64,000 nt of DNA from a virus (IMGVR_UViG_3300005337_000001:96001-160000); one strand, 5' to 3'; counted from the stretch's first letter, positions 14,017 through 42,386 are shown. Translations and numbers: made by a program. Notes: generated by a model not told the origin, from the sequence alone.

Positions 14017-14700
14017 CTAGCCCATCGTCGGCACGCCGTACTGGTTTACGTACGACGGCAGAGCCGCGGAATGCCCGCCCAAAGCGTGCTCTTGCGGCGG
14101 CGCCATGCCGAATTCACCAGCCTTCTTTGCGCCCTTCGCCGCCAGCATTCCGGCTCCCAGCACGCCTGCGCCGATGGCTGCCTTACCTAGCAAGCCAGGG
14201 CCTGGGATGGCGCTCACCACCGGCTTCAAGAGCTTCTGAGCTCCACTGACCAGCGCGTTAGGTGCCTTGTTCACCGCGCCGAGCGCTGAGCCAAGCATGC
14301 CTCCGATCCCCGCGGTCTTGGCCAAGACCCGACCGGCTTCTTCGCCGATGGCAGCTGCGGCTTTGTCGAACAAGCTCATGTCACCGGGTATGTCGCTGTC
14401 GGAACGCTCACCCTGGTAAAGCATCGATCCCATCGGATCGAGCGGCACGCCGCCGCGCAGCGCCGCATTCATCGGCGCGTTGCGGTTGGCCTCCTCGAAG
14501 CGCTGGACGTTGTGCTTCAGCTCCGCTTTGGCAACGCCGGCGTCAGCGCTACGGCTCATGCCGCGCGCAAGCAGCAGCCCGCCTACCAGCGCAGCCAGGG
14601 GTAGTCCGCCCTTCATCGGCGACCACTTGGCCTGCGCTTCGGCGACTTTCTCCATGTCGCCCGTGCCCATGTACGCGGCCAAAACCGTGTGCAAGCTCAT
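14017..14700 (-). CDS. putative internal head protein with glycine-zipper segments
   Basis: KVAE/KAAA/KTAG motifs; LPLAALVGGLLLA and GAGVLGAGMLAA segments. Confidence 0.6.
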   Translation of the reverse strand: MSLHTVLAAYMGTGDMEKVAEAQAKWSPMKGGLPLAALVGGLLLARGMSRSADAGVAKAELKHNVQRFEEANRNAPMNAALRGGVPLDPMGSMLYQGERSDSDIPGDMSLFDKAAAAIGEEAGRVLAKTAGIGGMLGSALGAVNKAPNALVSGAQKLLKPVVSAIPGPGLLGKAAIGAGVLGAGMLAAKGAKKAGEFGMAPPQEHALGGHSAALPSYVNQYGVPTMG

Positions 14701-14712
14701 ACCCAGAGGATA

Positions 14713-15360: not shown

Positions 15361-15375
15361 AACCCCGGTAGAGTA

Positions 15376-15762: not shown

Positions 15763-15776
15763 GTAGCGCCCTCAGA

Positions 15777-16541: not shown

Positions 16542-16568
16542 CTTGCTGTTGCTCCTTCTCTCAGAATA

Positions 16569-16868
16569 TCACGGCGTCTGCGTCTGCTTGCCGCCCAAGA
16601 TCTCATCCCACTTCTTCGTGCTCACGCCTTTGGGCGGCGGGGGCTCGGCGACCTTGAACTTCCCACCGAGCTTCACGTAGTACTCGAGCGGGGCTTCTGG
16701 GCTGTACGTCGCCGCCAGCTTCAGGAGCTCGGGGTCTTCAGCCGCGCCGGCGCGCGCGAGGTTCGCGAGCTGCACAGCAGAAACGGCCGGAGCCGAGGCA
16801 GCCTTCTCTTGCAAAAGCTGCTCGGCTCGAACGCGGCCCACGGCCGCTATGAACGGCGCGCGGTCCAT
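16569..16868 (-). CDS. small virion-associated protein
   Basis: 99 aa between sheath and tube; KAAS, KLAA motifs. Confidence 0.65.
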   Translation of the reverse strand: MDRAPFIAAVGRVRAEQLLQEKAASAPAVSAVQLANLARAGAAEDPELLKLAATYSPEAPLEYYVKLGGKFKVAEPPPPKGVSTKKWDEILGGKQTQTP

Positions 16869-19800
16869 TAGATCACCAGGGTGACGCGGATGTAGTTGCA
16901 GGGGAAGGGCGGGTCGATCAACACGTCGACCAGCACCGTATCGGGCGCGTCCTCGTCCTGGATGATGTTGTTCAGGTTGAAGCCGACGAGCACGCCGACC
17001 TCGACCAGGTACCCGCCGACGCCACCGATGACGGTGCCGAGCTGGTCCAGGAAGGCCTGGGTGATGTTGAACCGACCGATGAAGTTCTTCAGCGAACGGC
17101 GCAGGAACTTGGCCGTGAAGTCGACCACTTTCGTGATCGAGTCCGTGCGGGTCTCCACCGAGGTGAGGTCGGTGGTGAGCGCCATACGGCTGATGAGCGG
17201 TGCCGATGGCGCGTCTTGCACGATGATGTACGTGCCGCCTGCCGCCATGATGTTCATCTGCGACTCGGAGAAGAAGTCGTTGCTTCCGAGCACGCGGGTG
17301 AACCCAGCCATCGGGAAGTTCGTGAACGACTGCTGGGGCGGTTGCTGCCCGATCATGCCCGCGATGGCCGCGTTCATGTAGAAGCCGTTGACGATCTGTT
17401 CGATGCCCTCGATGGTGGCCGCAGCCTGGTCCGGCGCCGTGTGCCAGAAGCGGCGGTCGCCGAAGCTCTGGCTGAGCGCCTGGTAGGTCTCGGCAATCTT
17501 GGCCTTGTCGGGCGCGCCCTCGGACGTGACCAGGGCCGCGCCGCGTACGCGAACGGCAAAGGCCTCGCTGATGAGCTGGCTTGGCAGCGGCGGGGTGTTG
17601 AGTGCCGTCGTCGCATAGTAGCCGTCGTCATTGTCGCCGGCGTTGAACGACGTGCGGATGGTGACGACCGAGCCACTGATGCCAGCCACCGAGTAGCGCT
17701 TGGCGTCGCTCGCGATGTCGATGAACACCCCCGACGTGGCCAAGATGGTGCCGACGGGGCTCACACCCTTGGCCAACAGCAGAGCGCTCAGGTTGGGGAT
17801 ACCGGTGTCGAAGGTCAGGCCGGACGAGCCGGTCGTGTTGCCGTCGGCGCCGGAAGCCACCAACGTGTCGAGCATGTTGGCCGGCTGCTCACTGTTGAAC
17901 AGCGTGATGCGCTCGCCCTTCTGAGCAGGTTCGCTCATGAAGTCGGTGTGGGTCTTGAAGATCTGCGCGACGGTCTGGTCGTGCGTGAGCGGCGCCAGCG
18001 CGTAGACCTCGAAGGCTTCGAGCAATTCAGCGGCGCGCGTGAAGGCCTCGGGCGTGCCGAACGGCGCATCCGCGCTCACTGCGTCGATGCCCAAGCCCGT
18101 GATCTGCACGCCGGGGGCGTTGACCAGGGCGAAGAACATACCGAGCGCCAGCGGGTTCTGCGTGGTGATGGGAGCCATCACCGACTCGAGCTGGGTCTGG
18201 CTGTCGATGCGAATGAGCGAGGCCTGGTCGGCCAGAGCCGACAGGTCCTTGCGGATGGCCGTGTACGACAGGTACACCGGCGCGCGGCCCTGCGACGGGT
18301 GAATCGCAGCGCCCGTGGTGTCGCGCAGCAGATTGTTCTTCAGCGTCGCCGTCTTGTTGGCGTCGACCACCAAGCTCGGCACCGGCCGGTCAGAGCCGAG
18401 ACCCGTCAGGTTCTTGGCGATGATGTACCAGTACCGGCCCGCGTTGAGCGTGATGGTCTTCTGCTCGCTCATCTTCAGGATGGAGACCTGCCCACCTGGG
18501 GCGACCTGACTGATGATGCCGGCGGACACACCATCGACGATGAGCTCGTCGCCGGGCTCCGCGTGGCCGAGGGCGCCGTACGCGCGCGTGTCGGCGACCA
18601 AACCGAGAGTCGTGAGCGCAGTGCCGCTCTTGATCCAGATGAAGGCGTCGGCGCCCGTGAGGCTGTGCGTAAAACGCAGGAAGTTGGTGCTGAGCGAAGC
18701 CGTGAGGCGTCCGCCTGCAGCCGTACCCATCACCGCGTTGATCTCGGAGAGCACCGCCGCAGCGTTGGCGATACCAGACGAGAAGGTGATGGTCTGCAGC
18801 TGCTGACCATCGCTGATCTCGATGGTCTTGCCGGCGAGGTCGCCCGGGTAGGATAGCGCCGTGATGTTGACGTTGCCCGTCACGACCGCCGCAGTGCTGA
18901 CCGCCGTGAAGTCGTAACCGAGGAACTTCATGAGCGGCGAGAAGTTGTCGCCGTTGCCATCGTCGGTCACTTCGATGGACTGGCCGACGTCGGTCTCGTT
19001 CGTGGTGAAACCGAGCGTAGTGTTGGCGGTACCGACCTTGATGACGAGCTTCGAGTCAGCGCCACCGTTGTCGTCGAGCAATTGCAAGAAGTTGGTAGTA
19101 GGCGTCAGCGAAGCAGTGAGCCCCGTGGTAGACGAGTTGACGCGAGCTACGACCAGTGAGGGCGTCGTGTCGCCCACCTGGAACGTGACCGTCTGGTCAG
19201 CACCATCGTCTACCGAAATGACGAGAGTCTTGGCCGTGAGATCGCCAGGCAGCGTGAGCGTGGTGACGTCGACGGTACCGACCAGGACAGCCGCGTCATC
19301 GACTACGCCGTTGCGAAGGAAGGCCTCCGTACGCAGCTCTTCGATGAAGTTGTTCGCTGCCATCGCGAGGAACGCGCGCACGCTGTTCGACTCGATGACG
19401 AGCTCTTCGATGTTGCCGCGAGGGTCCGGAAAGTTGGTCGCCGGGATGGGCTCCTCGAGCTGCGAGTAGCTGTCGACACCCGTCGCCGTACGCGCTGCAC
19501 CGAAGCCGAAGGCAGAGAGCACTGCGGGCGAGCTCGTACCGATGATCTGCAGCGTCTGAAATTCACCGACGCCAACGGTGCGCAGGCGCCACACCGTGGA
19601 GCTCAGCACCTCAGCCTTCGACGACGTAACGCCAGCAGCGGCGAGCGCCTTGTTGATCGCAGTCACCACCGACGCGGGCGTGAGCCCGGTCGTAGTCGGA
19701 TCGGCGAAGAGAACGGTGACGTTCGGTCCGTGATTTGTCGAGAAGATGAGCTGCAAGCCGTCGAGCCCGGTGTAGACGGGCGGGCTGCCCGTAGCTGCCT

Positions 19801-20002: not shown

Positions 20003-20018
20003 GTACTGGCTCCTTCCT

Positions 20019-21345: not shown

Positions 21346-22247
21346 GGTTCTTTCGGGTACGACGTCGGGTACAACGCAAAGATACCAGGGATTTCCTCGT
21401 CCTCGAAGTTGGCCAGGTTGAAGGGGTTTGTGTAGTTGCGCGCCGGCGTGATGAAGAGGTTCTTGAGCGCAGAGGAGAAGCTCACTGGGATAGAGAACTC
21501 GATGTCCTTCGTCTCGATGGCATGAACCTGCACCTCTTGATGAACCGCCGCCCGGCTGTGCTCGGTCTGCGTCTGGCCAACGACCTTCCAACGCAGGTTC
21601 TCCGCCTCGATCACCAGGTCGCCGGGTTTGAGGATGGGGTAGAAGCCCAACCGCAACGTCGTGTTGTCCTGCTGCGTCTCGCCCGTGTTCAAGTGCTGTG
21701 TGCTCTTCGAGCTCGGATCGATCTGAATGAACGTCTCGATGGGATGCAGATAGCCGCGCACAAAGCCGGTGCAAAAACAGGTGATGCAGCCGCTCTTTGT
21801 CACCTGGTTCAGCGTTTCATTCCAGCAATCTGGGCAGCGCTGGCCAAAAGTGCGTCGTGGCAGCACGATGCAGCGGCGCCCAGCGAACTCCCGCATCAGC
21901 AGGCGGATATGCCGCCGAAGCTCAGTAGCGATGATGTCGGCCTCGGGCTCATGTGCCACAGGCCCGAAGTCCTTCACGTCGCCCGAGCTCTTCTCACGCA
22001 CACGGATGAGGTACTGGTACTCGCGCCAGCGATGCGCGATCTGAATCACGTTGTCGACGAACGTGTACTGGTCCTGAAAGGGCGGCGTGAGCGTGTCCCA
22101 CGGGCCTTCCGGCGACTCGGACCGCAACACCTGAAACTCGAAGTCGAAGATGTCGCGTGTCGTCGGCGCGACGCGCCAAGTCACCTCGTGGAAGTCGATG
22201 TCCAGCGAGATGACTCGGAGCTTGTCGAGCTCGATCGGTACCGGCAT
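21342..22247 (-). CDS. neck/head-closure protein with Zn ribbon
   Basis: FN3-like N-terminal part; CPDC...CITCFCTGFVRGY; PILKPGDLVIE..RWKV. Confidence 0.65.
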   Translation of the reverse strand: MPVPIELDKLRVISLDIDFHEVTWRVAPTTRDIFDFEFQVLRSESPEGPWDTLTPPFQDQYTFVDNVIQIAHRWREYQYLIRVREKSSGDVKDFGPVAHEPEADIIATELRRHIRLLMREFAGRRCIVLPRRTFGQRCPDCWNETLNQVTKSGCITCFCTGFVRGYLHPIETFIQIDPSSKSTQHLNTGETQQDNTTLRLGFYPILKPGDLVIEAENLRWKVVGQTQTEHSRAAVHQEVQVHAIETKDIEFSIPVSFSSALKNLFITPARNYTNPFNLANFEDEEIPGIFALYPTSYPKEP

Positions 22248-23404
22248 TACTGCCTGGGTTGCGTGTTCGACAGCATCTTGCCCGCAACCAGGCCGCCAGC
22301 GCCGGCGACGCCTGCCGCTGCGAGCGGGTTCTTCTGCGCGAAGTTCTTGGCGACGTTGCCGAACGAGCTGGCAACCTGACCCAGGCCGCCGCTCTTGTAG
22401 GCCGACGTAGCCAGGCTCTTGCCTGCGCTGAGCGCATTGCCGACGGCAGGCAGCGCAGCTTTACCAGCGTTCAGCGCGGTACCGAGGATGCCTGCGGTCT
22501 TGTCGGTCTTTTCCAGGCCGGGGAACTTCTTCGCCACCGCAGCACGCACCTTGCTCTTCTCCGAATCAGAGCCGTGCATGCCGACCAAGCCCAGCGCCGA
22601 GCGCGCGTGCTTGGCGTCGGGGATTGGGTACTTGCCGGTGTCACCAGGGCCGTCTGCCTTAGGCTCGGCGAAGTTCTTGTCGGCGATGTGCTCACGCGCA
22701 TTCAACGTGAGTGGCGCCGCCGTCTTCGCGAGGAAGCGACCGGCTTCGATGATGGCAGCGACCTTGGCGGCCGATTGCTTCACCTCTTCCTCTTTCGGCA
22801 GTGCTTTCGGTTTCGCCTTCGGAGGTTGCGGAGGCGCACCTTCACCGCCGCCAGCGTGCGCCTGCTCGAGCAGCTTGATGGCCTCGTCCTCGGTCGCTTC
22901 ATGAGCGGCATCTTCACCGCCACCGACAGCAGCTTCTTCCTGCTGCGCGCCCTCGAGCTCAGCGATAGCCTTCTCTTCCTTGGCCTCCGGAGAAGCCGCC
23001 GGCTCGCCGGCGCCGCCGTTCTGAGCCATGACCAGGTCTAGATCCAGCATACGCTTCTGCAGCTGGATGGCGTCGCGCTTGGCCCAGGTGTCGCTGGGCT
23101 GCGGCTTCATCGCTCGCTCCTGCTCACGCAGCTGCTGATCTTCCATGTCGAGCTGCAGCAGCGCCTTCTCGAGCTCCACCGCCTTAGCGAATAGCGGAGT
23201 GCCCGTGTACTTGCCGAGCCAGGTGTTGTCGCTGCCGCCAGGACCGCAGGCGTCCATGCCGTAGGCAAGCTTGCAGGTCTCGTCGCCGCTTGCGAGCTTC
23301 TGTAGCTCCTCGAGCGGGAACTGCTTGAGCTTGTCGACGAGCTGGCGCGAAGCCGTCTTCTCGGTGGCAGAGCGGTAAGAAACTTCCAGGAATTTGTCGA
23401 GCAT
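22247..23404 (-). CDS. internal head protein (K-x-A sites, DUF6582-like domain, glycine-zipper tail)
   Basis: KTAS/KLAS/KTAA/KTAG; REHIADKNFA..KYPIPDAKHARSAL..KVRAAVAKKFPGL. Confidence 0.65.
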   Translation of the reverse strand: MLDKFLEVSYRSATEKTASRQLVDKLKQFPLEELQKLASGDETCKLAYGMDACGPGGSDNTWLGKYTGTPLFAKAVELEKALLQLDMEDQQLREQERAMKPQPSDTWAKRDAIQLQKRMLDLDLVMAQNGGAGEPAASPEAKEEKAIAELEGAQQEEAAVGGGEDAAHEATEDEAIKLLEQAHAGGGEGAPPQPPKAKPKALPKEEEVKQSAAKVAAIIEAGRFLAKTAAPLTLNAREHIADKNFAEPKADGPGDTGKYPIPDAKHARSALGLVGMHGSDSEKSKVRAAVAKKFPGLEKTDKTAGILGTALNAGKAALPAVGNALSAGKSLATSAYKSGGLGQVASSFGNVAKNFAQKNPLAAAGVAGAGGLVAGKMLSNTQPRQ

Positions 23405-23413
23405 GATGGTCTC

Positions 23414-25210
23414 CTACGCGCCACGATGAAATGAGGCGGCTTGTCGAACGAGGTCGGCAATCTTGGGTCCAGCTGAGGCACCAACCGTGGCGCCACCGAT
23501 ACCTCCAGCAATGGTAGCGGGGATGGGATGCGCGCGCGTAGCCTCGCCCAGGCCGAGACGCATCTTCTCTTCGACCTGCAACAGCGCGTCGGCAAAGCCG
23601 CGTAGACCAGGGCGCTTCGGCGCTGCTTCACGCTCCGCGATGCTCGCGCGCATCTTGTCGAGGTCCGGGCCGTGTCCAGCTGCTTCGAGCCCAGCAGCAC
23701 CAGCGCCTAGTGCGCCGCCGGCAAGAGCGCCGACCGTCGACGCCGTGCTGGCGGTCTTGAAGAGCTCGGGCATAGCTGCGGCAAGCTTCTCGCGTCGAGA
23801 CTCAGCGCTCGCCTTGCCTGCAGCCACGCCAGCTGCCCCCGCGAGTGCGCCGCCAGCGAGGGCGCCACGCACGCCGCTGGTAAGTGCCCGTTCTTTGGAC
23901 GCATTACCGACGGCCGCACGGCCTACCTCGCCCAATTGCGGCGCAAACCGATCGGCTTCCCCCTGCCACGCGCGCGCGGTAGAGCCGCTCAACACGCGGG
24001 CCGTACGGTCCAGCCCTTTGCGCAGGCCTTTGCTGATCGCGCTTCCAACCTTGATGGAAACCTGGCCTGTGGGTTTCCTGGGAGCGGGCTGGCCTTCCTC
24101 GCTGGCGTTCGCCTGCGGGGGCGCGCTGGCGCCGCCTCCAGTCCCGCCGCCGCCGGCGCCGGGCGGCACAGCTCCAGGCGCAGCCTCAGCTGGCGTGCCC
24201 TCGGGAGCTGGCGCTTCCTCCTGCTCTGCAATGCCGTCGCTCGACGCCGTGGCGCCCTGCTCAGCGTCGGTGGTGGGGACGTCGCCGCCTTCGGCCGGAG
24301 CACCCTCCGTGCCTTCCCCGCTACCTGGTACCGGAGCACCACCTTCAGCAGGGGCTTCCTCGCCCGGCGCACCCTCGGCGCCCTCGGCACCAACCTCCTG
24401 CGGTGCCAGCGGCTCCATGCCGCCGGCAGCTCCACCTTCGCCGCCGAGCTCTGGCTCGGTGCCAGGTAGGCCTTGGGAAGCCAGGTCGAAGAGCTGTGAG
24501 CGCACGCCCTGCACCTCGATCTTGGCCGCCGCCTCTTGACCCTTGGCTTGTAGGGCCTGGTTGGACGCGCCGACGGCCTGTTGCATGGCCTGTGTCGCTG
24601 CCAGATTGGCTGTTTCGACCTGCTGCATGGCGGCCTGCTGCGCGATCTGGCCCTCCTGCTGCGCAGCCGACAGCTGCTGCTGGTGAGCTTCCTGCTCGGC
24701 GGTCAGCTGCTCAACCTGCTGCTGAGCCTGCGCTGCCTGCTCGGTGGCAGCAGCGGCCTGGGCGCGCGCTTCCTCGAGCCGCGCCTGGTAGTACTCGACT
24801 GCGCTCTGTTCCTCGGCCGCCATACCAGCCTGTTCGTTGGCCAGGTACTCGGCTTGCGCCGGCACCGCCGCCGGCGTCGGTGAAGAAATGGTAGCGGCAG
24901 ACGCGTCTTCGCTCGCCGCGGTCTCGTCGCCTGCCGTCTTCATGAACGTACGGCCGAGCAGCTTGAAGCGCAGCGAGGCGCTCTTCACGTTAAGGAACGG
25001 CTGCGGATCGGTCTGCGCGCTGTCCGCGGGTGCCTCTTCATGGAGCGGCACTTTCTGCGGCGCGCGGTCGGCGGCAGCTTGTTTCACGCACTCAGCCATG
25101 AGCGCGTCATCCTCGTGTGTCACCTTGCCGAAGTCTTTCAGCCCCACGAAGAACGAAGCCGCTTTGTCGAGCGGAATGGGACGGCTGAGACCACGTTCGA
25201 TGGCATTCAT
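23414..25210 (-). CDS. internal head protein (coiled coil, acidic linker, glycine zippers)
   Basis: 598 aa; Q/A coiled coil, E/G/P linker, GALAGGALAG x2; several K-x-A sites. Confidence 0.65.
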   Translation of the reverse strand: MNAIERGLSRPIPLDKAASFFVGLKDFGKVTHEDDALMAECVKQAAADRAPQKVPLHEEAPADSAQTDPQPFLNVKSASLRFKLLGRTFMKTAGDETAASEDASAATISSPTPAAVPAQAEYLANEQAGMAAEEQSAVEYYQARLEEARAQAAAATEQAAQAQQQVEQLTAEQEAHQQQLSAAQQEGQIAQQAAMQQVETANLAATQAMQQAVGASNQALQAKGQEAAAKIEVQGVRSQLFDLASQGLPGTEPELGGEGGAAGGMEPLAPQEVGAEGAEGAPGEEAPAEGGAPVPGSGEGTEGAPAEGGDVPTTDAEQGATASSDGIAEQEEAPAPEGTPAEAAPGAVPPGAGGGGTGGGASAPPQANASEEGQPAPRKPTGQVSIKVGSAISKGLRKGLDRTARVLSGSTARAWQGEADRFAPQLGEVGRAAVGNASKERALTSGVRGALAGGALAGAAGVAAGKASAESRREKLAAAMPELFKTASTASTVGALAGGALGAGAAGLEAAGHGPDLDKMRASIAEREAAPKRPGLRGFADALLQVEEKMRLGLGEATRAHPIPATIAGGIGGATVGASAGPKIADLVRQAASFHRGA

Positions 25211-25213
25211 TGC

Positions 25214-29545: not shown

Positions 29546-29899
29546 TCAGCTCAGGAGAAACCGCTCGAGGTCACTTGACCCTGCGGCGCCCGAGAGCTCG
29601 TCGGACACGTGTGCACGTTTGCCCATGTCCGGGCCCACGAGCTCCACCGCTTTTTCCGTGACGTCGAGATTCAGAGAGCCTGCGGCGGCCTGCTTCTGAA
29701 GCTCGTCTGCAACCTCGTCGACCGTCCCGGACTTGATGCCCTTGTCGATCATCGAAGTTGCAATCTTTTCGACGCGCTGCCGCGACGCATTCTCGAGGAA
29801 CGCATCGCGGTAGAGGTCACGCTCACTTGCGAGCTTGCGGAGGGTCTCGGGGACTTCCGCGAGGACCTCGCGTTTCATTGCTGCACTCAGCTTGTCCAT
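29546..29899 (-). CDS. scaffold-like small helical protein
   Basis: 117 aa; KLAS/KIAT/KQAA; C-terminal SDLERFLLS resembles a capsid-binding tail. Confidence 0.5.
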   Translation of the reverse strand: MDKLSAAMKREVLAEVPETLRKLASERDLYRDAFLENASRQRVEKIATSMIDKGIKSGTVDEVADELQKQAAAGSLNLDVTEKAVELVGPDMGKRAHVSDELSGAAGSSDLERFLLS

Positions 29900-29916: not shown

Positions 29917-31332
29917 TTACGTGCCAGAGCCGGCGACACCGCCGACGGGGGGAGCTGTATAGGTGCCCATGCCACCCATCGACTCCTTTTTCTTGTCCTT
30001 GACGTCTTTGTCTTTCGCCGCCGCTTCAGCCATCTTTTCCAAGACGGCACGAGCAGCTGCGCTCCTGGTCGACGCCGAGATCTTCACCCCGGCTTGACCG
30101 GTGTGGACCAGGGTCTTCTGCAGCACGTTGTCGTGCGCAGCGGAGAGTGCGGGCTCGGAGAGCACCGCCTTGAGTTGCGGCTTCACCTGGGCCTTGGCGT
30201 CGCCCTTGGTGTAGTTGCGCGCGGCGTCGTTCGACGCGATGAGCCCGGTCGGGCCCTGGGGCTTGCCGCCCGCCGGCGCGCCGCCGTCTTCACCCGAAGC
30301 CGACGTGTCGGGCGGCACCGCAGCGCCGGCCGAAATCTTCGCGGGGTTGATGGCGTCCTCGGCGGTCTTCTCCACCGACGCACCCGCCTGCTTCACCGCG
30401 CCGAGCATGTAGTCGACCAAGCGAGGGTCGACAGCCGGCGTGGCTGCGGAAGCTTCCTTCGCGACAGCGACCGGCGCGATGACCTTCTCCGAGGCCTCCT
30501 TGCGCAGGAGCGCGATGGGCGCGGTGTACTGCGGTTGAGCCGCAGAGACCTTCTGCTTGCCGGCCACCGGCTTGTTGGTCTCGAGCGCCGTCGCCGGACC
30601 AGCAGGCTGATTGCCAGGATTCACCGTGCCGGTGCTCTTCGGCACTTGATGAGCCGGCGTCGCCGCACCCTGCTGACCAGGCGCGACGGTGTTCTTACCG
30701 CCAGGGCTCTCGAGCACCTTCAGCGGGTTCGGGCCGGTACCGGGGCCGATCTCGGCTGCGGTCTTCGCCGCCGCTGCCTCGACCTCTTCATCGATGAACG
30801 AGTTGCCGAGCACGTACTCGACAGCGGTCGCGAGCTTCTCGACGTAGTCGGTGGGGATGGAATCGACTTCGCTGTTGCGGCCGGCGGACGCCGTCTTTTC
30901 GACGGTTGCGGCCGGTGCGTCACCTTGCGAAGCAAGCTGACGAGCTGCTTCGAGCGTGACGGCGGTATGGTCGGCAGCACCAGCTGCAGCGGCCTTTACC
31001 ATTTCGTGAATCGTGAATCGGGGAGTGGCTGCGGGCATTGAAACCTCACTGTGCGCAATCTTCGGAGGGAGAAAACCTTGTTGGTCGGGAGTGGCGCTCT
31101 TCTGCGCCGACGAGCCCGCGTCGGAATTGATCGGCGACCCATTGTTGACGCGCGAGTAGTTGGTTCGCGGTGCCATCCCCTTCGGACCGGTCTGCCCTGG
31201 TGCGGGCTTGTTGCCGACGGCGAGGCCAGGAATGGGAGCAGACGAAGCCGTGTCCACCGACGAGTCGGGGAATGGCACCGATGTAGCTTCCGCTACCTTC
31301 GCTGCTGGCTGTCGTTGCTCCCATACCTTCAT
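29917..31332 (-). CDS. internal head/scaffold protein, low complexity, many K-x-A sites
   Basis: 471 aa A/P/G-rich; possible internal start ATG 31038 (SD GAGG). Confidence 0.65.
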   Translation of the reverse strand: MKVWEQRQPAAKVAEATSVPFPDSSVDTASSAPIPGLAVGNKPAPGQTGPKGMAPRTNYSRVNNGSPINSDAGSSAQKSATPDQQGFLPPKIAHSEVSMPAATPRFTIHEMVKAAAAGAADHTAVTLEAARQLASQGDAPAATVEKTASAGRNSEVDSIPTDYVEKLATAVEYVLGNSFIDEEVEAAAAKTAAEIGPGTGPNPLKVLESPGGKNTVAPGQQGAATPAHQVPKSTGTVNPGNQPAGPATALETNKPVAGKQKVSAAQPQYTAPIALLRKEASEKVIAPVAVAKEASAATPAVDPRLVDYMLGAVKQAGASVEKTAEDAINPAKISAGAAVPPDTSASGEDGGAPAGGKPQGPTGLIASNDAARNYTKGDAKAQVKPQLKAVLSEPALSAAHDNVLQKTLVHTGQAGVKISASTRSAAARAVLEKMAEAAAKDKDVKDKKKESMGGMGTYTAPPVGGVAGSGT

Positions 31333-31354
31333 CTCACAGGTTGCTGATCTGAGT

Positions 31355-32203: not shown

Positions 32204-32225
32204 GATCTGTCTCCTGTTGGATGGT

Positions 32226-33950
32226 TCATCGCGTGGTCACCAAGGGGAGTGCCCTCTGCACGCCGGCGTGCGCCTGATCGCCCGATAGCTTTACCACCCC
32301 TTGCGATGAATACCCAGCAGGCAATTCGTTCATGAACGCGCCCGACAGGTACTTGAACGACAAGGGAGTGAAGAGCTCCTCTGCCGACACGCTCGCAAAC
32401 TTGCGCAGCATGACGTCGTCGGCTGATGTAGCCGCTTCAATCATGTCCTGTGCGTTGGCGACGAGTTGCATGAGGTTCGCTCGGTAGCTGTTGTAGGCAG
32501 ACCCAATCTTACGGAGAAGATCCGAGGGATGGGAAGAAGCCCTCTTCTCAGATTTGGGTGGAACGCCTGCAATCACCAACACCCGGCGCTCGATGACCGG
32601 GCCAAACGCCGAGCGCTCGCCCATGAACGGGGCGAGCAGCTGGGCCAGCACAGGGCTGAAATCCTGCTCCTTCAGCGATTCGTCGCCTGTCTCATCCATC
32701 TTCGGGAAGCCTTGACCCATCGCCTCGAGCTGGTCGGCCAGGTCGCCCTTCCCCATGCTCACCAAAGTGATGCGCTGAAACTCACGCGGGCGAAGAACCA
32801 TCCCCAAGCCAGCGGTAGTCGACAGTGCTTTGCCAAGGCCGGATTGACCCAGTATCTCCTGCAGTTCTTTAGGCAAGTCGGCTTCGCGATCGGTTAGCAG
32901 CGGCACTGCTTTACCTGCCAGTTGGTTCGGCACGACCTTCTTGGTCATCTCCGCTTGCTTGGCGCGCCCGCGCGCGCGCACCTCGTCCTCCTGCAGATAG
33001 CGCGCTGTGACCTGGTCCTTACCCGCTGTCTTCTCGAGCACGTCCTCGCCACTCGCCATCTTCTCGGCCACTTCAGCTGAACCCATGAAGCCGTACGTGC
33101 GCTTGCCATCGTCGGCGATCTTCAGCATCGCCTTGGCAATCTTGTCGGCGCCGATGAAGACGTAGCTGATGTCGAAGAAGCGAGGGAAGTCGTTGTCGAC
33201 CCAGACCTTGCGCCCGTCGGGCAAGATTCGATTCATCTGCGTGCGGCCGTACTCCGAGTACTCCTTGCGCGTCACCTGCACACCGCGGATGGGGTGCTTC
33301 TTATGCACCTCCAAGATCGCTGCGCCGGGACTCGTGTGCTTCTTCGGGTCGTACGTGTCCCACGCCTCTTGGTAACGCTTGCGGTCGAGCGTGATCGAAC
33401 ACGTGTCGAAGGGCACCTTCGTACCCATGCTGACGTCTGGGTAACCGCCCATCTTCAACTTGTCCCAGATGCTCTCACCGCCGTTGGCTAGGCAGGTGTC
33501 ACGATCGAGACGCGTCACGAGCTCGACCCGCTTCATGTGCGGGTTCCAGGCTGCGAGCTCGACGACGCCGAGTTTCTTGTTGGGGTCCTTGTTGCGATGA
33601 TGCGGAAAAACGCAGGCGCTGTAGAACGTGGGGAAGCCGTAGGCCCAGCCCTTGGCCTTCACCATGTCGTAAACGGGCACGCCCTTCCAGTCGTCGGGCG
33701 CATGCACCAACGAGGCTTCAGAGAAGCGGTCGCCGTTGATGTTCGATCCGTAGTACTCGCCGGCGCCCATGGCGTTGACGAGCACGTACTGCGAGTCGCT
33801 GCGCGGCTCGAGCTGCGCGATGTACGACGACACCTCCGGCAGCAGGCTGGCTGACGCTACCTTCTCGAAGTAAGAGTCAGCTGGCCCGAAGAGCGGGACT
33901 GCGGCCGGGCCGAACTCTTCGCTCCCCTGGAAGAGGCTGACCTTGATCAT
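32226..33950 (-). CDS. prohead maturation protease (assemblin/HK97-type serine protease)
   Basis: VLVNAMGA..SNINGDRF, FPHHRNKDP (His), DVSMG (Ser), RFFDISYVFIGAD; sits upstream of scaffold and MCP. Confidence 0.75.
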   Translation of the reverse strand: MIKVSLFQGSEEFGPAAVPLFGPADSYFEKVASASLLPEVSSYIAQLEPRSDSQYVLVNAMGAGEYYGSNINGDRFSEASLVHAPDDWKGVPVYDMVKAKGWAYGFPTFYSACVFPHHRNKDPNKKLGVVELAAWNPHMKRVELVTRLDRDTCLANGGESIWDKLKMGGYPDVSMGTKVPFDTCSITLDRKRYQEAWDTYDPKKHTSPGAAILEVHKKHPIRGVQVTRKEYSEYGRTQMNRILPDGRKVWVDNDFPRFFDISYVFIGADKIAKAMLKIADDGKRTYGFMGSAEVAEKMASGEDVLEKTAGKDQVTARYLQEDEVRARGRAKQAEMTKKVVPNQLAGKAVPLLTDREADLPKELQEILGQSGLGKALSTTAGLGMVLRPREFQRITLVSMGKGDLADQLEAMGQGFPKMDETGDESLKEQDFSPVLAQLLAPFMGERSAFGPVIERRVLVIAGVPPKSEKRASSHPSDLLRKIGSAYNSYRANLMQLVANAQDMIEAATSADDVMLRKFASVSAEELFTPLSFKYLSGAFMNELPAGYSSQGVVKLSGDQAHAGVQRALPLVTTR

Positions 33951-34555
33951 CCGTAGTAATTTTGCGCCTCTTCCACACGGTCCGGCGACGTCTCACCTTG
34001 CTCATTCATGCGCGAGATGGTCTTCGTCTGGCGCAGGAGCTGCGGCTTCTTGCCCTCGCCGCCCCCGCCGAAGCCCTTCATGAAGCCACCGAGCGCGGCC
34101 TCGGTCAGAGGGCCCTGCTTAGGAGGCTGCCGATTACGCTGCGCGCCGATCGAAACGTTGCCGCGCTCTTCGATGGCGCCATTCATGGCCTGTCGCATGA
34201 GCGTGCCAGCAACCACCGGTTCCTTCGTAAACTCCGGCGAGAAGCGGCGCAGCGAAGTGAACATGCGATTGAAGCCAGCCGGGTCGCTCTGCAGATGCTC
34301 GTGCAAGTCGGGGTTGGCTTCCAGCATGCTCTGGAAATCACGCGTCTTGGTAGCCGCGTCGTAGAGCTTACCGGCGGCGCCGACGAGACCGGCGAATGCT
34401 GCAGCGCCGACGCCGGCCATCGCTGCGTTGCCGGCTTGTTCCCCCATCCGACTGAGCGCGGGCCCGGCCTTGCCGGCCATGCCCTTCAGGTTCGGCATCC
34501 CGAAGGCGCGCTTCTCGGACAGAAACTCATCGACAGGGTTCTTGGCCATGATCAC
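33947..34555 (-). CDS. glycine-zipper head protein
   Basis: DEFLSEKRAFG then AMAGVGAAAFAGLVGAAG. Confidence 0.65.
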   Translation of the reverse strand: MIMAKNPVDEFLSEKRAFGMPNLKGMAGKAGPALSRMGEQAGNAAMAGVGAAAFAGLVGAAGKLYDAATKTRDFQSMLEANPDLHEHLQSDPAGFNRMFTSLRRFSPEFTKEPVVAGTLMRQAMNGAIEERGNVSIGAQRNRQPPKQGPLTEAALGGFMKGFGGGGEGKKPQLLRQTKTISRMNEQGETSPDRVEEAQNYYG

Positions 34556-35877
34556 TGTCCCGTCATCGTACGATAGCGGCGGTTGTTGTACTCGGCAGTG
34601 CCCGGCACCACCGCCTTGGCAGCGCCAAGACCAGCTTGGACGATGGGCCTGTCGGTGACTGACTGCAGCGCCGCATTGCCGGCAAGCGCGCCACCGACGA
34701 GCGCCGTACCCTTCAGGCCCTTGGAAATCGTAGGGGCCAGACGCTTGGCGTCTTTGGCGCCCACGAGAAAATGGGCAATAGCAGGCGAAGCCGCGTCGAT
34801 GCCACCGCTCGCGGCGTCGATGCCCTTCTTGGCAGCACCGAGGAGCCCGCCCGAAGAAGCCTGCTTGAGCAAGTTTTCCGACTGCTCCACGCCTTCGATG
34901 AGCTCCTGATGAAGCACCCGCATGTTGGCCAACTTGTTCAGGGCGTCGATGAACTCCCCGTACGAAGTGACCAACGGGTGCTCCGCGTTCACGTCGCCGG
35001 CCGAAGCCTGCTTCGTGAGTGACTCACCGAGCGCATCGAGGCTCGGGAACACACCTTCGCGCTGCAGGCGCGGCGTCATCAGGCGGAAGGCGATCTTCAC
35101 GTACAACGGGTCTTCCGACACCACCGCCCAAGACTTGACCACGTCGGCCAGGCTCACACCCTCGAGCGCCGCCTGTTTCACGTGGCCATACAGCTGGGTG
35201 CCAGCCTCGGCGTAGTCGACCTCGAGCTTGTCGATTTCGTACGCAACTTCGTCGACGCCGGCGGCGAGCTTGCTGCGCACTTCGACCAGCGGCTGCAGCG
35301 GTTCGGCGAACGCGATGTGCGATGGCTCACCGTGGTTGAAGAGCGCCCAGAGCTCGTCTTCGTACGGGGACGCGTGCTTGGGCAGCGACGGCAGCTTCTG
35401 CGGCTTGGGCAGACCTTCGACCGCCTCGAGCCCCTCAGCCTCCGTGGCCGACGCGGTCTTCTCGGTACCGCCATAGGAGCCAACTGCCTGCGCGTGCTTG
35501 TGCACTTCCTTGGGGTCGCGGGTGTAGTCGAGCGTGCCTCGGTCGTACACTGAACCACCACCGCCGTCGTTCAGGTCTTGAAGTACCTGCGACGGGTCAG
35601 CCGGGCCTTTGTCGAAATGAACCACCCGGTGATTGGCTTCCTTGCGGAACTCACGCAGGTAAGCGTCGCCGTTCGTGAACTCGACCACTCGCTTTACCTG
35701 CTCGGGGGAGAGCCGCTCGCCGCGGACTACATCCACGATGGCGTCATGAAGCGACGCTACTTTGCCCTCGCACCAGTTGGCTGCCGCTTGTTTTCCGAGC
35801 ACTTCGAGATGCTCCCCAGAAACCGGGCGCGCATCGCGCTGTTGAAGAACCGTCTGGATGGGGGAGTCGCCGCTCAT
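34552..35877 (-). CDS. internal head protein with many K-x-A sites and glycine-zipper tail
   Basis: LSPEQVKRVVEFTN domain; KTAS, KQAA, KQAS x2; GTALVGGALAG. Confidence 0.7.
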   Translation of the reverse strand: MSGDSPIQTVLQQRDARPVSGEHLEVLGKQAAANWCEGKVASLHDAIVDVVRGERLSPEQVKRVVEFTNGDAYLREFRKEANHRVVHFDKGPADPSQVLQDLNDGGGGSVYDRGTLDYTRDPKEVHKHAQAVGSYGGTEKTASATEAEGLEAVEGLPKPQKLPSLPKHASPYEDELWALFNHGEPSHIAFAEPLQPLVEVRSKLAAGVDEVAYEIDKLEVDYAEAGTQLYGHVKQAALEGVSLADVVKSWAVVSEDPLYVKIAFRLMTPRLQREGVFPSLDALGESLTKQASAGDVNAEHPLVTSYGEFIDALNKLANMRVLHQELIEGVEQSENLLKQASSGGLLGAAKKGIDAASGGIDAASPAIAHFLVGAKDAKRLAPTISKGLKGTALVGGALAGNAALQSVTDRPIVQAGLGAAKAVVPGTAEYNNRRYRTMTGQ

Positions 35878-35914
35878 GACAGAGCCCTTTCTTCAGTACA
35901 TTCTAAGAAGTAGC

Positions 35915-36643
35915 ATGACGTTTCACTCCATGGGAAGGAACGAGGACCTGCTGACCTTCGCTGCCGTCGCCGAGCGGCTGGACGTAACACGTCGCCATCT
36001 AGGCCACATGATACGACAAGGCTTCATTCGCCCGGTGAAAGCGGCCCGCCACCTGCGCGAGCTACGCTTCAGGCCAGAGGACGTGAACGCGGTGCTGTCG
36101 CTGCGCCAGCACGGTACCGATCTCCCCAAGTTGGCCGTCATGGCCGCCCAGGCGCGCAGCCTCAGCCTGAGCAACGCGGCCAAGTTGGACAAGTTGTGCT
36201 CGTTCCTAGGGCTAGAAAATAACCGCCTGCGCATCGACGAGGACTCCGTCTTCATGCTGCACATGAAGACGCACGACACGATTGAGCTCCCGCTGTCCGA
36301 CCTGCGAGCGGGCGCCGTCATGGAGTGGGCATCAACCTTTAACGCCTTCGACGAGGGCTACCTGCAGATCATCGAAGAGTTCACGAACGACCCGCAGCCC
36401 TGGGTCGCGTACCTCGCCTTGGCCAACAAGATGATGGAGCAGCAGAACACGCGGTCCGAAACGAACCTGCGCTTTGCCTACGCCTGCCTCGACAGCTCAC
36501 GTCGACACCTGCGCCACGTCAGCTACTTCTACGTCATGAACAAGTCCGGTGAGCGGCTCGCCAACGACCTGTTCATCCGCGAAGCGGTCGACGATGAGAT
36601 CATCGCACAGCTTCACCCTACGCTAGACGAAACGACGCACTAG
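35915..36643 (+). CDS. MerR/excisionase-type helix-turn-helix DNA-binding protein
   Basis: LLTFAAVAERLDVTRRHLGHMIRQGFI...LRFRPEDV; alternative starts 35876 and 35930. Confidence 0.75.
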   Translation: MTFHSMGRNEDLLTFAAVAERLDVTRRHLGHMIRQGFIRPVKAARHLRELRFRPEDVNAVLSLRQHGTDLPKLAVMAAQARSLSLSNAAKLDKLCSFLGLENNRLRIDEDSVFMLHMKTHDTIELPLSDLRAGAVMEWASTFNAFDEGYLQIIEEFTNDPQPWVAYLALANKMMEQQNTRSETNLRFAYACLDSSRRHLRHVSYFYVMNKSGERLANDLFIREAVDDEIIAQLHPTLDETTH

Positions 36644-39203: not shown

Positions 39204-40152
39204 CGCCCCCATCATCCACATCTTCGGCGGTGGTTTCAACCTCAACGGGGTCAGGGTGCACGTTGGTAGTGTGATTCCCGCTCGTAAGCTGAGCAAGGGT
39301 CGGTACTTTGTTCGGGGTTGTAGCGACCGAAATCCGCTTCAAGTCCTCGCGCAGCTTGTCCTCGGGGTTCACGAGCGTCTGCTTGAGGCGCCCCATGATG
39401 TCGGCGATCACGGCATAGCCCTGACCCATCTGCGCGTTCAGGGGGCCGCCGGTCTGCACCGACGCGAAGGTACGCAGTAGCGCTGCCTCCATGGTGCGCT
39501 CGGCCACCTCACCCATGTCGATCTTGCGTGGCATCACACCGAGCTCCATCTGCGCCACGAGGCCCGCCAGGGGTGAGCTCGGTAGCCGCGCCGCTACGAC
39601 ACGTGGATCAGTGTGCCTGAACGCACGCAGCGCTACGTGCTGTTTCTGCGTAGCCGTATCGTCGGACGCCAACAGTCCGGAGTGCCGTAGTTCTAGCAGC
39701 GCTCGCATCTCCATACTCTCGAGCAACTCGATGTTCCAGAAGTAGTAGCGGTAGGTCTTGATACCGTCATCCGTCACCTTGCCTTGCATACGAACGCGCA
39801 CCGCATGTGCGATCACTTCATTGGGAGCGCCAGCGAGGGCCATGGATTCGACCAGCTCACGCCAACGCGGCTTGCTCAGGATACGCAGCGCCTCGTTGTA
39901 CGCCCGCGTCGGGTTGAACGCGGACAGCAAGCCCTCACGTAACAGAAAACGGTACGACGGCTTGTGCGTCTCCTCTTCCGGGCGAAATGGCTTCGGCGGC
40001 ACCACTCGGTCACGCAGCCACTGGATGTACCAGTCGCCGAGGTAGTCAAGCTTGAGCTCCGCGGAGATGTCCTGGATGTACTTGTTCTCGTAACACGCAG
40101 GGTGCGCGACCAAGTACCGGTAGTAATTCTCCGCGGGGCTCCGCCGAATCAT
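39193..40152 (-). CDS. hypothetical protein, terminase small subunit candidate
   Basis: Helical, HTH-like segment (LVESMALAGAPNEVIAHAV), upstream of terL. Confidence 0.4.
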   Translation of the reverse strand: MIRRSPAENYYRYLVAHPACYENKYIQDISAELKLDYLGDWYIQWLRDRVVPPKPFRPEEETHKPSYRFLLREGLLSAFNPTRAYNEALRILSKPRWRELVESMALAGAPNEVIAHAVRVRMQGKVTDDGIKTYRYYFWNIELLESMEMRALLELRHSGLLASDDTATQKQHVALRAFRHTDPRVVAARLPSSPLAGLVAQMELGVMPRKIDMGEVAERTMEAALLRTFASVQTGGPLNAQMGQGYAVIADIMGRLKQTLVNPEDKLREDLKRISVATTPNKVPTLAQLTSGNHTTNVHPDPVEVETTAEDVDDGGDAK

Positions 40153-42386
40153 CCCTGGAAAGCTATCACCTTCAAGCCCTCGATTACATCTTCGAGGGCG
40201 CGGATGGCGCGCTCGATGGCGCCTTCCGACAGCTCACGCATGCCCAAACGGGCGCCGATCAGCAGCTCGCACAGCCGGCGCTGCGCCTCGTCCAAGGTGG
40301 GGAGGTAGCCGATGTAAGTGGCCAGATTCTCGGGGTTGATGAAGCCGAGGCTGAGCACCGAGTCGACGGCAATCGGGTCCGTGATGGCCGCCGCTTCCTT
40401 CCAAAGCCGGTGCCGGAACGTCGGCATCGAGCTCAAGAACTTCTCGGCCTCCACGTAGCTCTCGCCGCGGGCTTCGGCCGCCGTCTTCAACATGTTGCTG
40501 ATCCGCACCAGCTGGGGCGTGCCGCCGACGGCGTGCGCCATCTTCTCCAGCGCGTAGCTCGGGTTGGCGCCGAGCCCAGTCAGCAAGAAGAGACAGGCAT
40601 CCTGGTTCAAGAACTGCCGCTCCTCCATGGCCAGCTTCTCTACGGAGAAGCCGCGCACGCTAAAGCTGTCCAGGCCGCCGGCGACTACTTCCACCGACGC
40701 AAGCTTCCGCTTCAACGACGCCGTCTTGTTCACATCGGCCGCACTCTCGGCCAGATCGATCTCCGCAGCCGAGTCGAGCGGCATCCACATCCAACCCTGC
40801 GGCACGATCATCAGACCGTCGATGCTGACGATCTGCTGTGCGTACGGCTGCACGCTCACCTGCACTGGCCGGCCATCGAACGTCTCACCGTCGAACTTCG
40901 GCATCTCGTCGACACCGTTGCCAGCCAGCGTGGCGCCGAGCTGCAGCGGCAGCGTGGCGCACGGGATGCCACCGTACTCAGTGTAGAAGCAGCCGTGACC
41001 CTGCGCCTGCTCCGCTGGCACCGTCGCCGGTGCCGAGAACTCGCCGGCGGGGACGCCGGAGATGTCTGACTGCACCGCCGCGTGCTGGCCGTCCGTGAAT
41101 AGCGAGATGGGCAGCGCCGAGCCGTCGATGTCGACCAGGTTCGGAATCACCACACCGGTGAGATCTTCGCCGGCAGTCGACTTGACCATGTACATGCCAG
41201 GCGCTGAGATGGGACCAGCAGCCACGTGGGATTCACCGGCTTCTTCCTGCACACCTTCGTCGGCGCCCAGCGTCACAGCGCCGGCCGTGTCTGCAGCCAA
41301 CGCGATCTTCACGCCAACGCGGCGCACGAGCTCGCCACGGTCCACGCGCTCAGACATTGGCTCCCACATTCTGTGGCTGGCCGTCTTGATCTCGTAGCCA
41401 CCCGGCAGCTTCACCACCTGCAGCACGCTGGGCTTCACGTAGTTCAGCATCGCCGACGCACGCTTCTCGACCGTTGACGGCTGCGCTTCTGCTAGCAACA
41501 AGACGGAGTCATACGTCGCCACGTTGTTCGCGTAAGCCAGCTTCGTGGCTGGGTCGATCATCGAATCGCGAAAGTCTTGTAGGTCGCTGACGTTCGCCGT
41601 CGGCAGCACGGCCTCCAAGATGGAGCCCATCTTCATCCCCGCACCACAGGAGTCTTTCTCTTCCTTGACGGCGTAGCTTTCGAGCTTGGGAACTTTTGCG
41701 CCTCTGACGACCACTTCCTTGCCGACCTTCAACGCGCTGGCCAGTTTCAACGCATCGGCTGGTAGCTCGATCGTACGAGCTGCTTCCTTCTCCGCTTCGA
41801 ATTCATCGCCAAGATGTGTGAGGTAGTCCTCGAGCGAAGCAATCTTCTTGGACGCGGTCTTGCCACCCATACCGGCGCTCATCTGCGCGCCACCGCCACC
41901 GAAGCCGTAGCTCTGACGATACGGAGGATAGAGCTGACCGATCATCGACTGGTCACCCGGCGTCTTGCTGGTGACGTCGAACGCTTGCGGGCGGAACATC
42001 GCCTGGCGCATACGGCTCTCGGTAAGCGGCATCGCCTTGGAGTCGTCCGTGATCACCACGTCGAACGGCATGAGCTTACCGTCCTTGATGATGACCGGGA
42101 TGCGCGCCTTGCGAATGCCAGCGGCGTCTTGCTGCTCCTGCGGCGACGTCATCGGAGCCTCGGACTTGCTCGTCACTTCGACGTGGCCAAGGCCGTAGCC
42201 GCGCTCGCCGTCGACCGTCTCCATCACCACCTCGAGGCTGAAGTCGGCGAGGTAGGGCACCTGCTTGTAGACTTCCTGCAGCACCTCGTCTTGCCATTGG
42301 TTTGGGTCCTCGGGCAGCGTGGTCTCGGCCGCGATCTTGACGAAAACGTGCTTGGGTTCGTGGAAGAGAGGCATCTGCTGCGTCAT
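40149..42386 (-). CDS. large internal head protein with many K-x-A sites
   Basis: 745 aa; KIAA, KTAS x3, KIAS, KLAS x2, KRAS, KTAA. Confidence 0.65.
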   Translation of the reverse strand: MTQQMPLFHEPKHVFVKIAAETTLPEDPNQWQDEVLQEVYKQVPYLADFSLEVVMETVDGERGYGLGHVEVTSKSEAPMTSPQEQQDAAGIRKARIPVIIKDGKLMPFDVVITDDSKAMPLTESRMRQAMFRPQAFDVTSKTPGDQSMIGQLYPPYRQSYGFGGGGAQMSAGMGGKTASKKIASLEDYLTHLGDEFEAEKEAARTIELPADALKLASALKVGKEVVVRGAKVPKLESYAVKEEKDSCGAGMKMGSILEAVLPTANVSDLQDFRDSMIDPATKLAYANNVATYDSVLLLAEAQPSTVEKRASAMLNYVKPSVLQVVKLPGGYEIKTASHRMWEPMSERVDRGELVRRVGVKIALAADTAGAVTLGADEGVQEEAGESHVAAGPISAPGMYMVKSTAGEDLTGVVIPNLVDIDGSALPISLFTDGQHAAVQSDISGVPAGEFSAPATVPAEQAQGHGCFYTEYGGIPCATLPLQLGATLAGNGVDEMPKFDGETFDGRPVQVSVQPYAQQIVSIDGLMIVPQGWMWMPLDSAAEIDLAESAADVNKTASLKRKLASVEVVAGGLDSFSVRGFSVEKLAMEERQFLNQDACLFLLTGLGANPSYALEKMAHAVGGTPQLVRISNMLKTAAEARGESYVEAEKFLSSMPTFRHRLWKEAAAITDPIAVDSVLSLGFINPENLATYIGYLPTLDEAQRRLCELLIGARLGMRELSEGAIERAIRALEDVIEGLKVIAFQG

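Follow-up and report, generated by a model that had tools for sequence, protein, structure and literature searches.

The prohead protease of phage T4 cuts at the short motif (L/I)-x-E and the assemblin of herpesviruses at (V/L/I)-x-A↓S (the arrow marking the scissile bond); these enzymes and those of phages phiKZ and SPN3US all follow a P3-x-P1 pattern, process themselves and dice propeptides. In T4, capsid-targeting leaders are found on internal proteins, and the scaffold protein gp22 is degraded. To our knowledge, every phage prohead protease of known specificity (T4, phiKZ, 201phi2-1, SPN3US) cuts after Glu. The phiKZ/SPN3US motif has been given as A/S/G-x-E (PMC10052503). The present analysis concerns a 64,000-nt window (G000:C1:96001-160000) of the complete 195,580-bp IMG/VR genome of an uncultured phage, with direct terminal repeats, and a tetrapeptide pattern, K-x-A-[SAGE], that recurs in the proteins of its head region. 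This is probably a prohead-protease cleavage code, recognized and cut by the product of open reading frame (ORF) 32226; a literature search found no description of a K-x-A protease specificity. Positions are those of the window unless genome coordinates are stated, ORFs are named by their lower coordinate, and features are collected in Table 1.

Enrichment of K-x-A sites in head-region proteins

Head proteins contain more K-x-A than a composition-matched background predicts. Against within-protein shuffles, K-x-A-[SAGE] was observed 91 times with 34.6 expected (z 9.8) and K-x-A-S 33 times with 6.1 expected (z 10.7), while the scrambled controls SAxK, KxSA, KAxS and RxAS were all at background. 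The initial annotation, which had noticed the motif by eye and proposed an enrichment test of structural against other ORFs, treated Ser, Ala, Gly and Glu in the fourth position as one class. This proved too broad: the preference is mainly for Ser, then for Ala (K-x-A-A, z 4.3), with Glu only moderately (z 3.7) and Gly barely (z 1.7) enriched. The test itself was run on the ORFs inside 14017-42386, a set defined by position only, with coordinates taken from that annotation, and hence non-circular. They contain 30 K-x-A-S sites with 3.8 expected (Poisson P=2e-17), against 13 with 14.0 expected in the other 230 ORFs of the genome. A genome-wide unbiased scan of gapped tripeptides gave the same picture, with L.K.A (65 vs. 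26.8 expected) and K.AS (43 vs. 17.5) at the top, Cys zinc motifs aside.

Individual proteins differ widely. The RNA polymerase (RNAP; no K-x-A-S in 2129 amino acids), helicase, tail sheath, portal, large terminase subunit (TerL) and body of the major capsid protein (MCP) are at background level, in keeping with the sparseness already remarked on for RNAP, helicase and sheath; the portal served as a negative control (K-x-A-[SAGE] 0 vs. 0.97 expected). Four to eleven copies had been claimed for each of nine ORFs, which holds for eight of them (Table 1) but not for ORF 29546, with two. A second group, said to carry one to three, is more mixed: ORF 16569 does have three and ORF 14017 has four, but K-x-A-[SAGE] is absent from ORFs 20935 and 33947, whose only K-x-A are K-L-A-N at K20 and K-R-A-F at K13, respectively. 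The E-K-I-A-E near the MCP N-terminus is present as described, at residue 23. Clearly enriched carriers in the window number about 8-11, so that the dozen or more precursors first envisaged are not a secure figure.

Three other sources of the motif were considered and ruled out. A DNA-level repeat is excluded by the sequences of 32 K-x-A-S sites, which are 32 distinct 12-mers in which each of the four Ala codons and each of the two Ser codon families is represented, so the signal is selected at the protein level. Paralogy and internal repeats are excluded because the 11 carriers have neither mutual similarity nor internal repeats (no match at E<=1e-3); together with the varied codons, this indicates that the motif arose independently many times. 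Composition is excluded by the within-protein shuffles and by the other 247 proteins of the genome, in which K-x-A is at expectation (253 vs. 268.6 expected).

Flanking positions had no role in picking the carrier proteins, and they show a strong pattern. Around the K-x-A sites of the 11 carriers (104 vs. 44 expected), Glu is favored at P6 (z 4.6), Leu at P5 (z 6.7), Glu at P4 (z 5.7), Thr or Ile at P2 (z about 6), Ser at P1' (z 9.8) and Ala at P2' (z 5.1), giving a full motif of (E)-L-E-K-[T/I/V/L/Q]-A-[S>A,G]-A. The pattern excludes Pro and Val from P1' and Gly and Lys from P2. This flank bias is restricted to the carriers, the other 247 proteins having only generic helix biases.

The ORF 32226 protein

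ORF 32226 encodes a putative prohead (head-maturation) serine protease. Its AlphaFold2 (AF2) model has a predicted local distance difference test score (pLDDT) of 79 and consists of a disordered leader, a confident alpha/beta domain, a disordered linker and a helical C-terminal domain. In a wide VIA-align comparison, the model matched the proteases of varicella-zoster virus (VZV; 1vzv, Z 10.5, 123 amino acids, 3.2 A) and T4 (gp21; 5jbl, Z 9.8, 132 aligned residues, root-mean-square deviation 2.8 A), followed by those of human cytomegalovirus (HCMV; 8j3s, Z 7.6) and Kaposi's sarcoma-associated herpesvirus (KSHV; 1fl1, Z 6.3), with the next unrelated fold (MCE) at about 6.4. Foldseek matches were individually weak (E about 0.2-1), and the list was dominated by herpesvirus proteases and gp21. 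The catalytic domain of the model thus has the assemblin/gp21 alpha-beta fold, that of the superfamily of herpesvirus (S21), T4 gp21 (S77) and HK97 (S78) prohead proteases, as the initial annotation had supposed. H118, S174 (within D-V-S-M-G) and H216 are invariant, in His-Ser-His order, among 36 homologues of 32-56% identity, and are candidate catalytic residues on the strength of this alignment.

The family is large, with 2197 representative homologues at 50% clustering. Neither the query nor any of the 36 homologues has a Pfam match at E<=1, no PHROG was found, and there is no meaningful sequence match in PDB, by phmmer with the single sequence or with a profile; the protein belongs to none of the curated families Peptidase_S77, S78, S21 or S80 of Pfam or the head-maturation proteases of PHROGs. 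These blanks, with that of the hhalign comparison discussed below, mark it as an uncurated family, related to the known ones by fold only.

Five of the six K-x-A-[SAGE] sites of this protein are in segments with pLDDT<50. K30-V-A↓S, at the disorder-to-order boundary before the catalytic domain (pLDDT is <50 up to residue 33), has its Lys kept in 35/36 and its Ala in 34/36 homologues, with a family consensus of [F/L]-E-K-x-A-[S/A], and is present in 8/8 close orthologues. K307-T-A↓G lies within the disordered linker that follows the domain; its Lys and Ala are each kept in 34/36, among gap-rich and variable flanks, and it is likewise present in 8/8 orthologues, at a flank identity of 0.22. Together the two sites have the consensus [F/L/M]-E-K-x-A-[S/A], and the disordered segments that hold them bracket the catalytic domain. 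Such placement is as expected of self-release sites, and by analogy self-processing at K30 and K307 is predicted. Lys and Ala are kept at K517 in 7/8 and at K469 in 3/8 close orthologues, and only partly in the wider family.

Many homologues (P0001, P0002, P0006, P0013 and P0016 among them) are 900-1700 amino acids long and contain one to three inteins with Hint and LAGLIDADG domains. The insertions are near query residues ~65-70 and ~176, beside the invariant N70/D74 and S174-M-G176. Functional sites are where inteins are typically inserted; in a prohead protease they appear unusual.

Comparison with described systems

T4 gp21 (MEROPS S77) is alike in fold, in having a short P3-x-P1 motif, in the N-terminal leaders on many head proteins, in self-processing (predicted here), in a site-dense scaffold or core (putative here) and in a protease gene located between the portal/terminase and scaffold/MCP genes. 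It differs in specificity, the motif here pointing to Ala instead of Glu at P1 and to Lys instead of Leu/Ile at P3. It is also much smaller (212 amino acids vs. 574 for ORF 32226, which has a large helical C-terminal domain); His216 is the candidate third catalytic residue here.

Processing in phiKZ (gp175) and SPN3US (gp245) extends to many head and ejection proteins; long propeptides with several motif copies are cut small and the protease auto-cleaves its C-terminal part (PMC10052503). Unlike the present case, cleavage is after Glu, at (S/A/G)-x-E or A-x-E, and ~80% of SPN3US head proteins are uncut. The SPN3US motif was established by mass spectrometry (PMC10052503), the present one from sequence.

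Herpesvirus assemblins (those of VZV, HCMV, KSHV and Epstein-Barr virus; MEROPS S21) include the best structural match, and share Ala-Ser at the presumed scissile bond, the candidate His-Ser-His order and the overall layout of a protease domain, a linker with a release-type site and a scaffold-like C-terminal part with a site near the C-terminus. Differences are the Lys instead of an aliphatic residue at P3, with a hydrophobic residue at P5 here, and the absence of sequence similarity. Assemblin has two sites; substrates and sites are many more here.

Placement and conservation of the sites

Most carriers have a site between residues 12 and 40. Such N-terminal sites are found in 9/30 head-region proteins, compared to 11/228 elsewhere (p=8e-5). 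Sites are also found in disordered linkers. Conservation was assessed with ten related loci, whose proteases are 50-82% identical, by aligning orthologues. Over 27 K-x-A-S sites, identity is 0.67 for the Lys and 0.70 for the Ala, compared to about 0.40 for the flanks and 0.33 for P2, so that the motif is conserved independently of its variable, indel-rich surroundings. K140 of ORF 34552, for example, is conserved within a linker that cannot be aligned elsewhere, and K146 of ORF 29917, K307 of ORF 32226 and K91 and K485 of ORF 23414 are islands of the same kind. The enrichment is repeated in the carrier orthologues at all ten loci (20 vs. 1.6 expected in L009, for instance), while MCP, TerL and other head genes there are without it. 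About 30% of orthologue sites align to no reference site, which indicates site turnover.

ORF 40149, encoding an abundant head-region protein, illustrates the range of contexts. Its hypervariable disordered linker (residues 133-252) holds K176 and K181, in segments with pLDDT<50, and K200 and K214, at a block-mean pLDDT of about 45-67. Across 38 homologues this central linker varies from 5 to 141 residues, and the sole recurring feature is K-x-A-[SAG], in zero to four copies. In the AF2 model, helices contain or adjoin K308, K554, K634 and K663, and a confidently modeled strand contains K334; K334 and K663 are inside conserved folded parts.

Homologues of this protein number at least 486. Its AF2 model is confident and has two domains, but for Foldseek only junk matches (RNAP, DegP) at E>0.01 and no fold match were obtained, and tblastn against cultured phages gave no match. 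Its N-terminus, F-V-K-I-A-A-E-T-T-L-P-E, resembles F-E-K-V-A-S-A-S-L-L-P-E of the protease, a sequence resemblance that suggests a common post-cleavage N-terminal element.

Similar leaders are found outside the head module. Three adjacent genes at genome positions 75082-77155 have near-identical leaders, L-D-E-L-Q-K-I-A↓A, with the Lys at residues 15-17, and a sigma factor at genome positions 70058-70819 has L-S-L-K-T-K-V-A↓A at residue 16; both are 20-26 kb ahead of the window start. The encoded proteins may be further substrates of the protease or cargo packaged in the capsid.

Glycine-zipper-like segments rich in G, A and L (e.g., K-T-A↓G-I-G-G-M-L-G-S-A-L-G-A-V) often come after K-x-A sites or make up small ORFs nearby; they were seen at 14308-14319, 22247-23404 (residue 302), 34855-34866, 33947-34549 and 57424-58509. 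These could be membrane-active or self-associating peptides freed by processing.

Distant relatives

Salmonella phage Arash (OQ632216; PMC10585845) has a protease, gp222, and an MCP that are each 28% identical to those described here. Protease, MCP and RNAP align by BLAST, but most head-module proteins in the region examined are unalignable. An unbiased scan of the Arash head module nevertheless had EK.A (14 vs. 1.45 expected) and K.AS (12 vs. 1.54) as its top outliers, with sites concentrated in gp220, gp223 and gp225. Arash gp222 has K-Q-A↓A at residue 30, and the MCP has L-V-K-E-A↓G at residue 27. In the Arash paper these are labeled only as structural proteins, and the words "protease" and "cleavage" are absent from its text (PMC10585845).

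In Bacillus phage G there is no capsid-wide enrichment, sites being found only in a protease homologue, gp19 (four sites), and in the portal (three sites); with this limited distribution, the full code is unproven for phage G. The unannotated gp19 is a remote homologue, 24% identical, whose domain is flanked by K-x-A sites (residues 43, 248 and 274). From this similarity in sequence and site placement, it is probably the phage G prohead protease.

Cleavage and its alternatives

If ORF 32226 is the enzyme, the carrier proteins would co-assemble into the prohead, and the protease would then cut after Ala, with Lys at P3, Ala at P1 and a small residue at P1'. N-terminal leaders of 12-40 residues would be taken off about ten head proteins, and disordered inter-domain linkers would be severed. 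The protease would free its own catalytic domain at K30 and at K297/K307/K331, and the scaffold-like ORF 31355 protein, with other site-dense proteins, would be chopped to small peptides. (The scaffold role of ORF 31355 is proposed from its position and composition.) It is possible that the MCP also loses about 25 N-terminal residues, although this is the weakest of the proposed sites. The initial annotation spoke of polyproteins, but the pattern is closer to the propeptide removal, linker cuts and scaffold/core degradation of T4 and SPN3US. We infer the cutting itself, the bond cut and the fate of the fragments; not every K-x-A occurrence need be a cut site.

Several points weigh against this reading. 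The position of the scissile bond is assumed by analogy. The Arash virion proteome, with 116 proteins detected, including metabolic enzymes, reports coverage only (PMC10585845) and so cannot show processing. The protease is tied to gp21 and assemblin by fold only, through a predicted model, and hhalign of the family profile against T4 gp21 found no relation (probability 0.2%). Only 7/17 sites of the two modeled proteins (32226 and 40149) are in segments with pLDDT<50, which make up about 18% of their residues, so accessibility is only partly borne out; since some are in predicted helices or a beta-strand (K334, K554 and K663 of 40149) and some have conserved flanks, some may be structural. At the MCP site, Lys and Ala are kept in 6/6 orthologues, but with Glu at P1' and flanks that are also conserved (0.83) this is uninformative.

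The motif might instead be a docking or targeting signal that is not cleaved, with L-E-K-x-A-S bound by a common partner (the protease C-terminal domain, scaffold, portal or inner capsid surface) that recruits its carriers into the prohead. The sites do behave like short linear motifs in disordered regions and N-termini, several are predicted as short helices, and T4 capsid-targeting leaders can carry targeting information (in part from the discussion in PMC10052503). Small residues at positions 3 and 4, with Pro and Val excluded at 4, are however what a scissile bond typically shows, copies of the motif lie on both sides of the protease's own catalytic domain throughout the family, and up to 11 copies per protein, with turnover, fit degradation better. 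Recruitment without cutting therefore seems unlikely, but targeting and cleavage are compatible, in that a leader may target its protein and then be cut at its K-x-A end.

It is more doubtful still, indeed improbable, that the motif is cut by some other enzyme of host or phage. The pairing of ORF 32226 with it is by association only, and in staphylococcal phage 80alpha a host protease reportedly does the capsid and scaffold processing. Here, on the other hand, the motif co-occurs with the protease family from this phage to Arash, self-flanking sites extend as far as Bacillus phage G gp19, in very different hosts, the enzyme bears conserved sites of its own and the module showed no sign of a second protease.

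A compositional or structural by-product (helix capping or a coiled-coil preference) with no role in recognition can be largely dismissed: the carriers are rich in Lys and Ala, K-x-A-A and E-K-x-A are common in helices and some sites are in predicted ones, but the shuffles control for composition, permuted motifs are flat, the rest of the genome has neither the excess nor the flank pattern, Lys and Ala form conserved islands in unalignable, indel-rich linkers and the same code is found in non-homologous Arash proteins.

Gene map

On the minus strand, the order of transcription is TerL (36640), 34552, 33947, the protease (32226), the scaffold-like ORF 31355, further ORFs and the MCP (27849). 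The protease gene is thus inside the head-morphogenesis module, and Arash gp220 to gp226 are in the same order. Genes were called as 258 ORFs over the 195.6-kb genome (GC content ~62%) with a codon-usage model trained on long ORFs. The lineage is remote from cultured phages, the nearest of which (Salmonella phage Arash and Vibrio phages D69, D181 and D148) are ~28-33% identical, and a PHROGs scan of ten head ORFs was almost blank. The RNAP is a single ORF, compared to two genes in Arash. For ORF 22247, just one full-length orthologue was available.

Table 1. Features of the window discussed in the text. Sites are K-x-A-[SAGE] unless specified, with expected numbers from shuffling; the arrow marks the presumed scissile bond.
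Feature	Position (nt)	Strand	Remarks
ORF 14017, 227-aa Gly/Ala-rich protein	14017..14700	-	4 sites vs. 1.09 expected, p=0.02
14017 leader site M-E-K18-V-A↓E	14638-14649	-	
14017 site K128-T-A↓G	14308-14319	-	followed by glycine-zipper-like segment
ORF 16569, 99-aa protein	16569..16868	-	3 sites vs. 0.60 expected, p=0.015
16569 leader site Q-E-K22-A-A↓S	16794-16805	-	
Tail sheath	16868-20002	-	
ORF 22247, 385-aa protein	22247..23404	-	5 sites
22247 leader site K16-T-A↓S	23348-23359	-	
22247 leader site L-E-E-L-Q-K36-L-A↓S	23288-23299	-	
ORF 23414, 598-aa Ala/Gly-rich protein	23414..25210	-	6 sites; K-x-A-S 3 vs. 0.27 expected
23414 leader site K16-A-A↓S	25154-25165	-	
23414 site K91	24929-24940	-	3/3 orthologues, flank identity about 0.26
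23414 site K485	23747-23758	-	3/3 orthologues, flank identity about 0.26
MCP, 371 aa	27849..28964	-	phrog_2522 major head protein, E 5e-13; Arash gp226 MCP, 28% identity
MCP single site K23-I-A↓E	28887-28898	-	
ORF 29546, 117-aa protein	29546..29899	-	2 sites
29546 site K22-L-A↓S	29825-29836	-	kept in 2/6 orthologues
29546 site D-E-L-Q-K69-Q-A↓A	29684-29695	-	kept in 6/6 orthologues
ORF 29917, 471-aa head-module protein	29917..31332	-	9 sites vs. 2.88 expected
29917 leader site K12-V-A↓E	31288-31299	-	
29917 site K146-T-A↓S	30886-30897	-	gap-rich linker; 7/7 orthologues, flank identity 0.26
ORF 31355, scaffold-like Lys/Glu/Ala-rich protein, 282 aa	31355..32203	-	directly downstream of protease; 11 sites vs. 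2.47 expected, p<0.0005
31355 leader site K19	32138-32149	-	
31355 site K119	31838-31849	-	among best conserved
31355 site K251	31442-31453	-	among best conserved; kept in 7/8 orthologues
ORF 32226, putative prohead serine protease, 574 aa	32226..33950	-	6 sites; AF2 model and fold matches
32226 disordered leader, residues 1-33			AF2, pLDDT <50
32226 assemblin-fold catalytic domain, residues 34-286	33093-33851	-	AF2, confident alpha/beta
32226 disordered linker, residues 287-337	32940-33092	-	pLDDT <50
32226 helical C-terminal domain, residues 338-547	32310-32939	-	AF2
32226 candidate triad residue H118	33597-33599	-	
32226 candidate triad residue S174	33429-33431	-	
32226 candidate triad residue H216	33303-33305	-	
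32226 site K30-V-A↓S	33852..33863	-	predicted N-terminal self-processing site
32226 site K297	33051-33062	-	neighbor of K307
32226 site K307-T-A↓G	33021..33032	-	analogous to release site
32226 site K331	32949-32960	-	neighbor of K307
32226 site K469-R-A↓S	32535-32546	-	end of disordered loop
32226 site K517-F-A↓S	32391..32402	-	57 residues before C-terminus
ORF 34552, 441-aa head-module protein, fold not recognized	34552..35877	-	8 sites vs. 1.23 expected
34552 site K140-T-A↓S	35449-35460	-	7/7 orthologues, flank identity 0.08
34552 further sites K39, K203, K234, K289, K338			
TerL	36640-38448	-	Pfam GpA_ATPase
ORF 40149, 745-aa abundant head-region protein	40149..42386	-	11 sites vs. 1.53 expected; 7 K-x-A-S vs. 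0.29
40149 leader site K17	42327-42338	-	at disorder boundary
Fused beta-beta' RNAP, 2129 aa, single ORF	44307-50696	-	
Portal, 693 aa	55339..57420	-	Arash gp204 portal, 33% identity, E 2e-75; phage G gp14 portal
ORF 59289, 446-aa protein upstream of portal operon	59289..60629	-	7 sites vs. 0.97 expected, p<0.0005
59289 site K273-R-A↓S	59802-59813	-	
59289 site K367-T-A↓S	59520-59531	-	
SNF2-type helicase	61254		

Implications

A wider and much more tentative proposal is that a very large, mostly uncultured clade of ~140-200-kb phages, those represented by the 2197 protease clusters, may share an uncurated assemblin-fold protease with a herpesvirus-like Ala↓Ser specificity and Lys at P3. It might process capsid, scaffold and packaged cargo, including proteins from outside the head module such as those encoded beside the phage sigma factor, with their L-D-E-L-Q-K-I-A↓A leaders, and the K-x-A leader might then be a portable "address plus cut-here" tag for capsid loading. 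On the main reading, a phage enzyme that cuts between Ala and Ser would resemble herpesvirus assemblin in function more closely than any other so far, and would strengthen the evolutionary link between the two, which to date has been based on fold.

The motif flags a protease family that is not modeled by Pfam or PHROGs. For a huge uncultured clade with some cultured members (Arash, Vibrio phage D69), it yields predicted ends of mature proteins that can be tested. The density of sites would also tell scaffold or core proteins (many sites) from retained cargo (one leader site), and so short a tag could serve to load foreign proteins into capsids.

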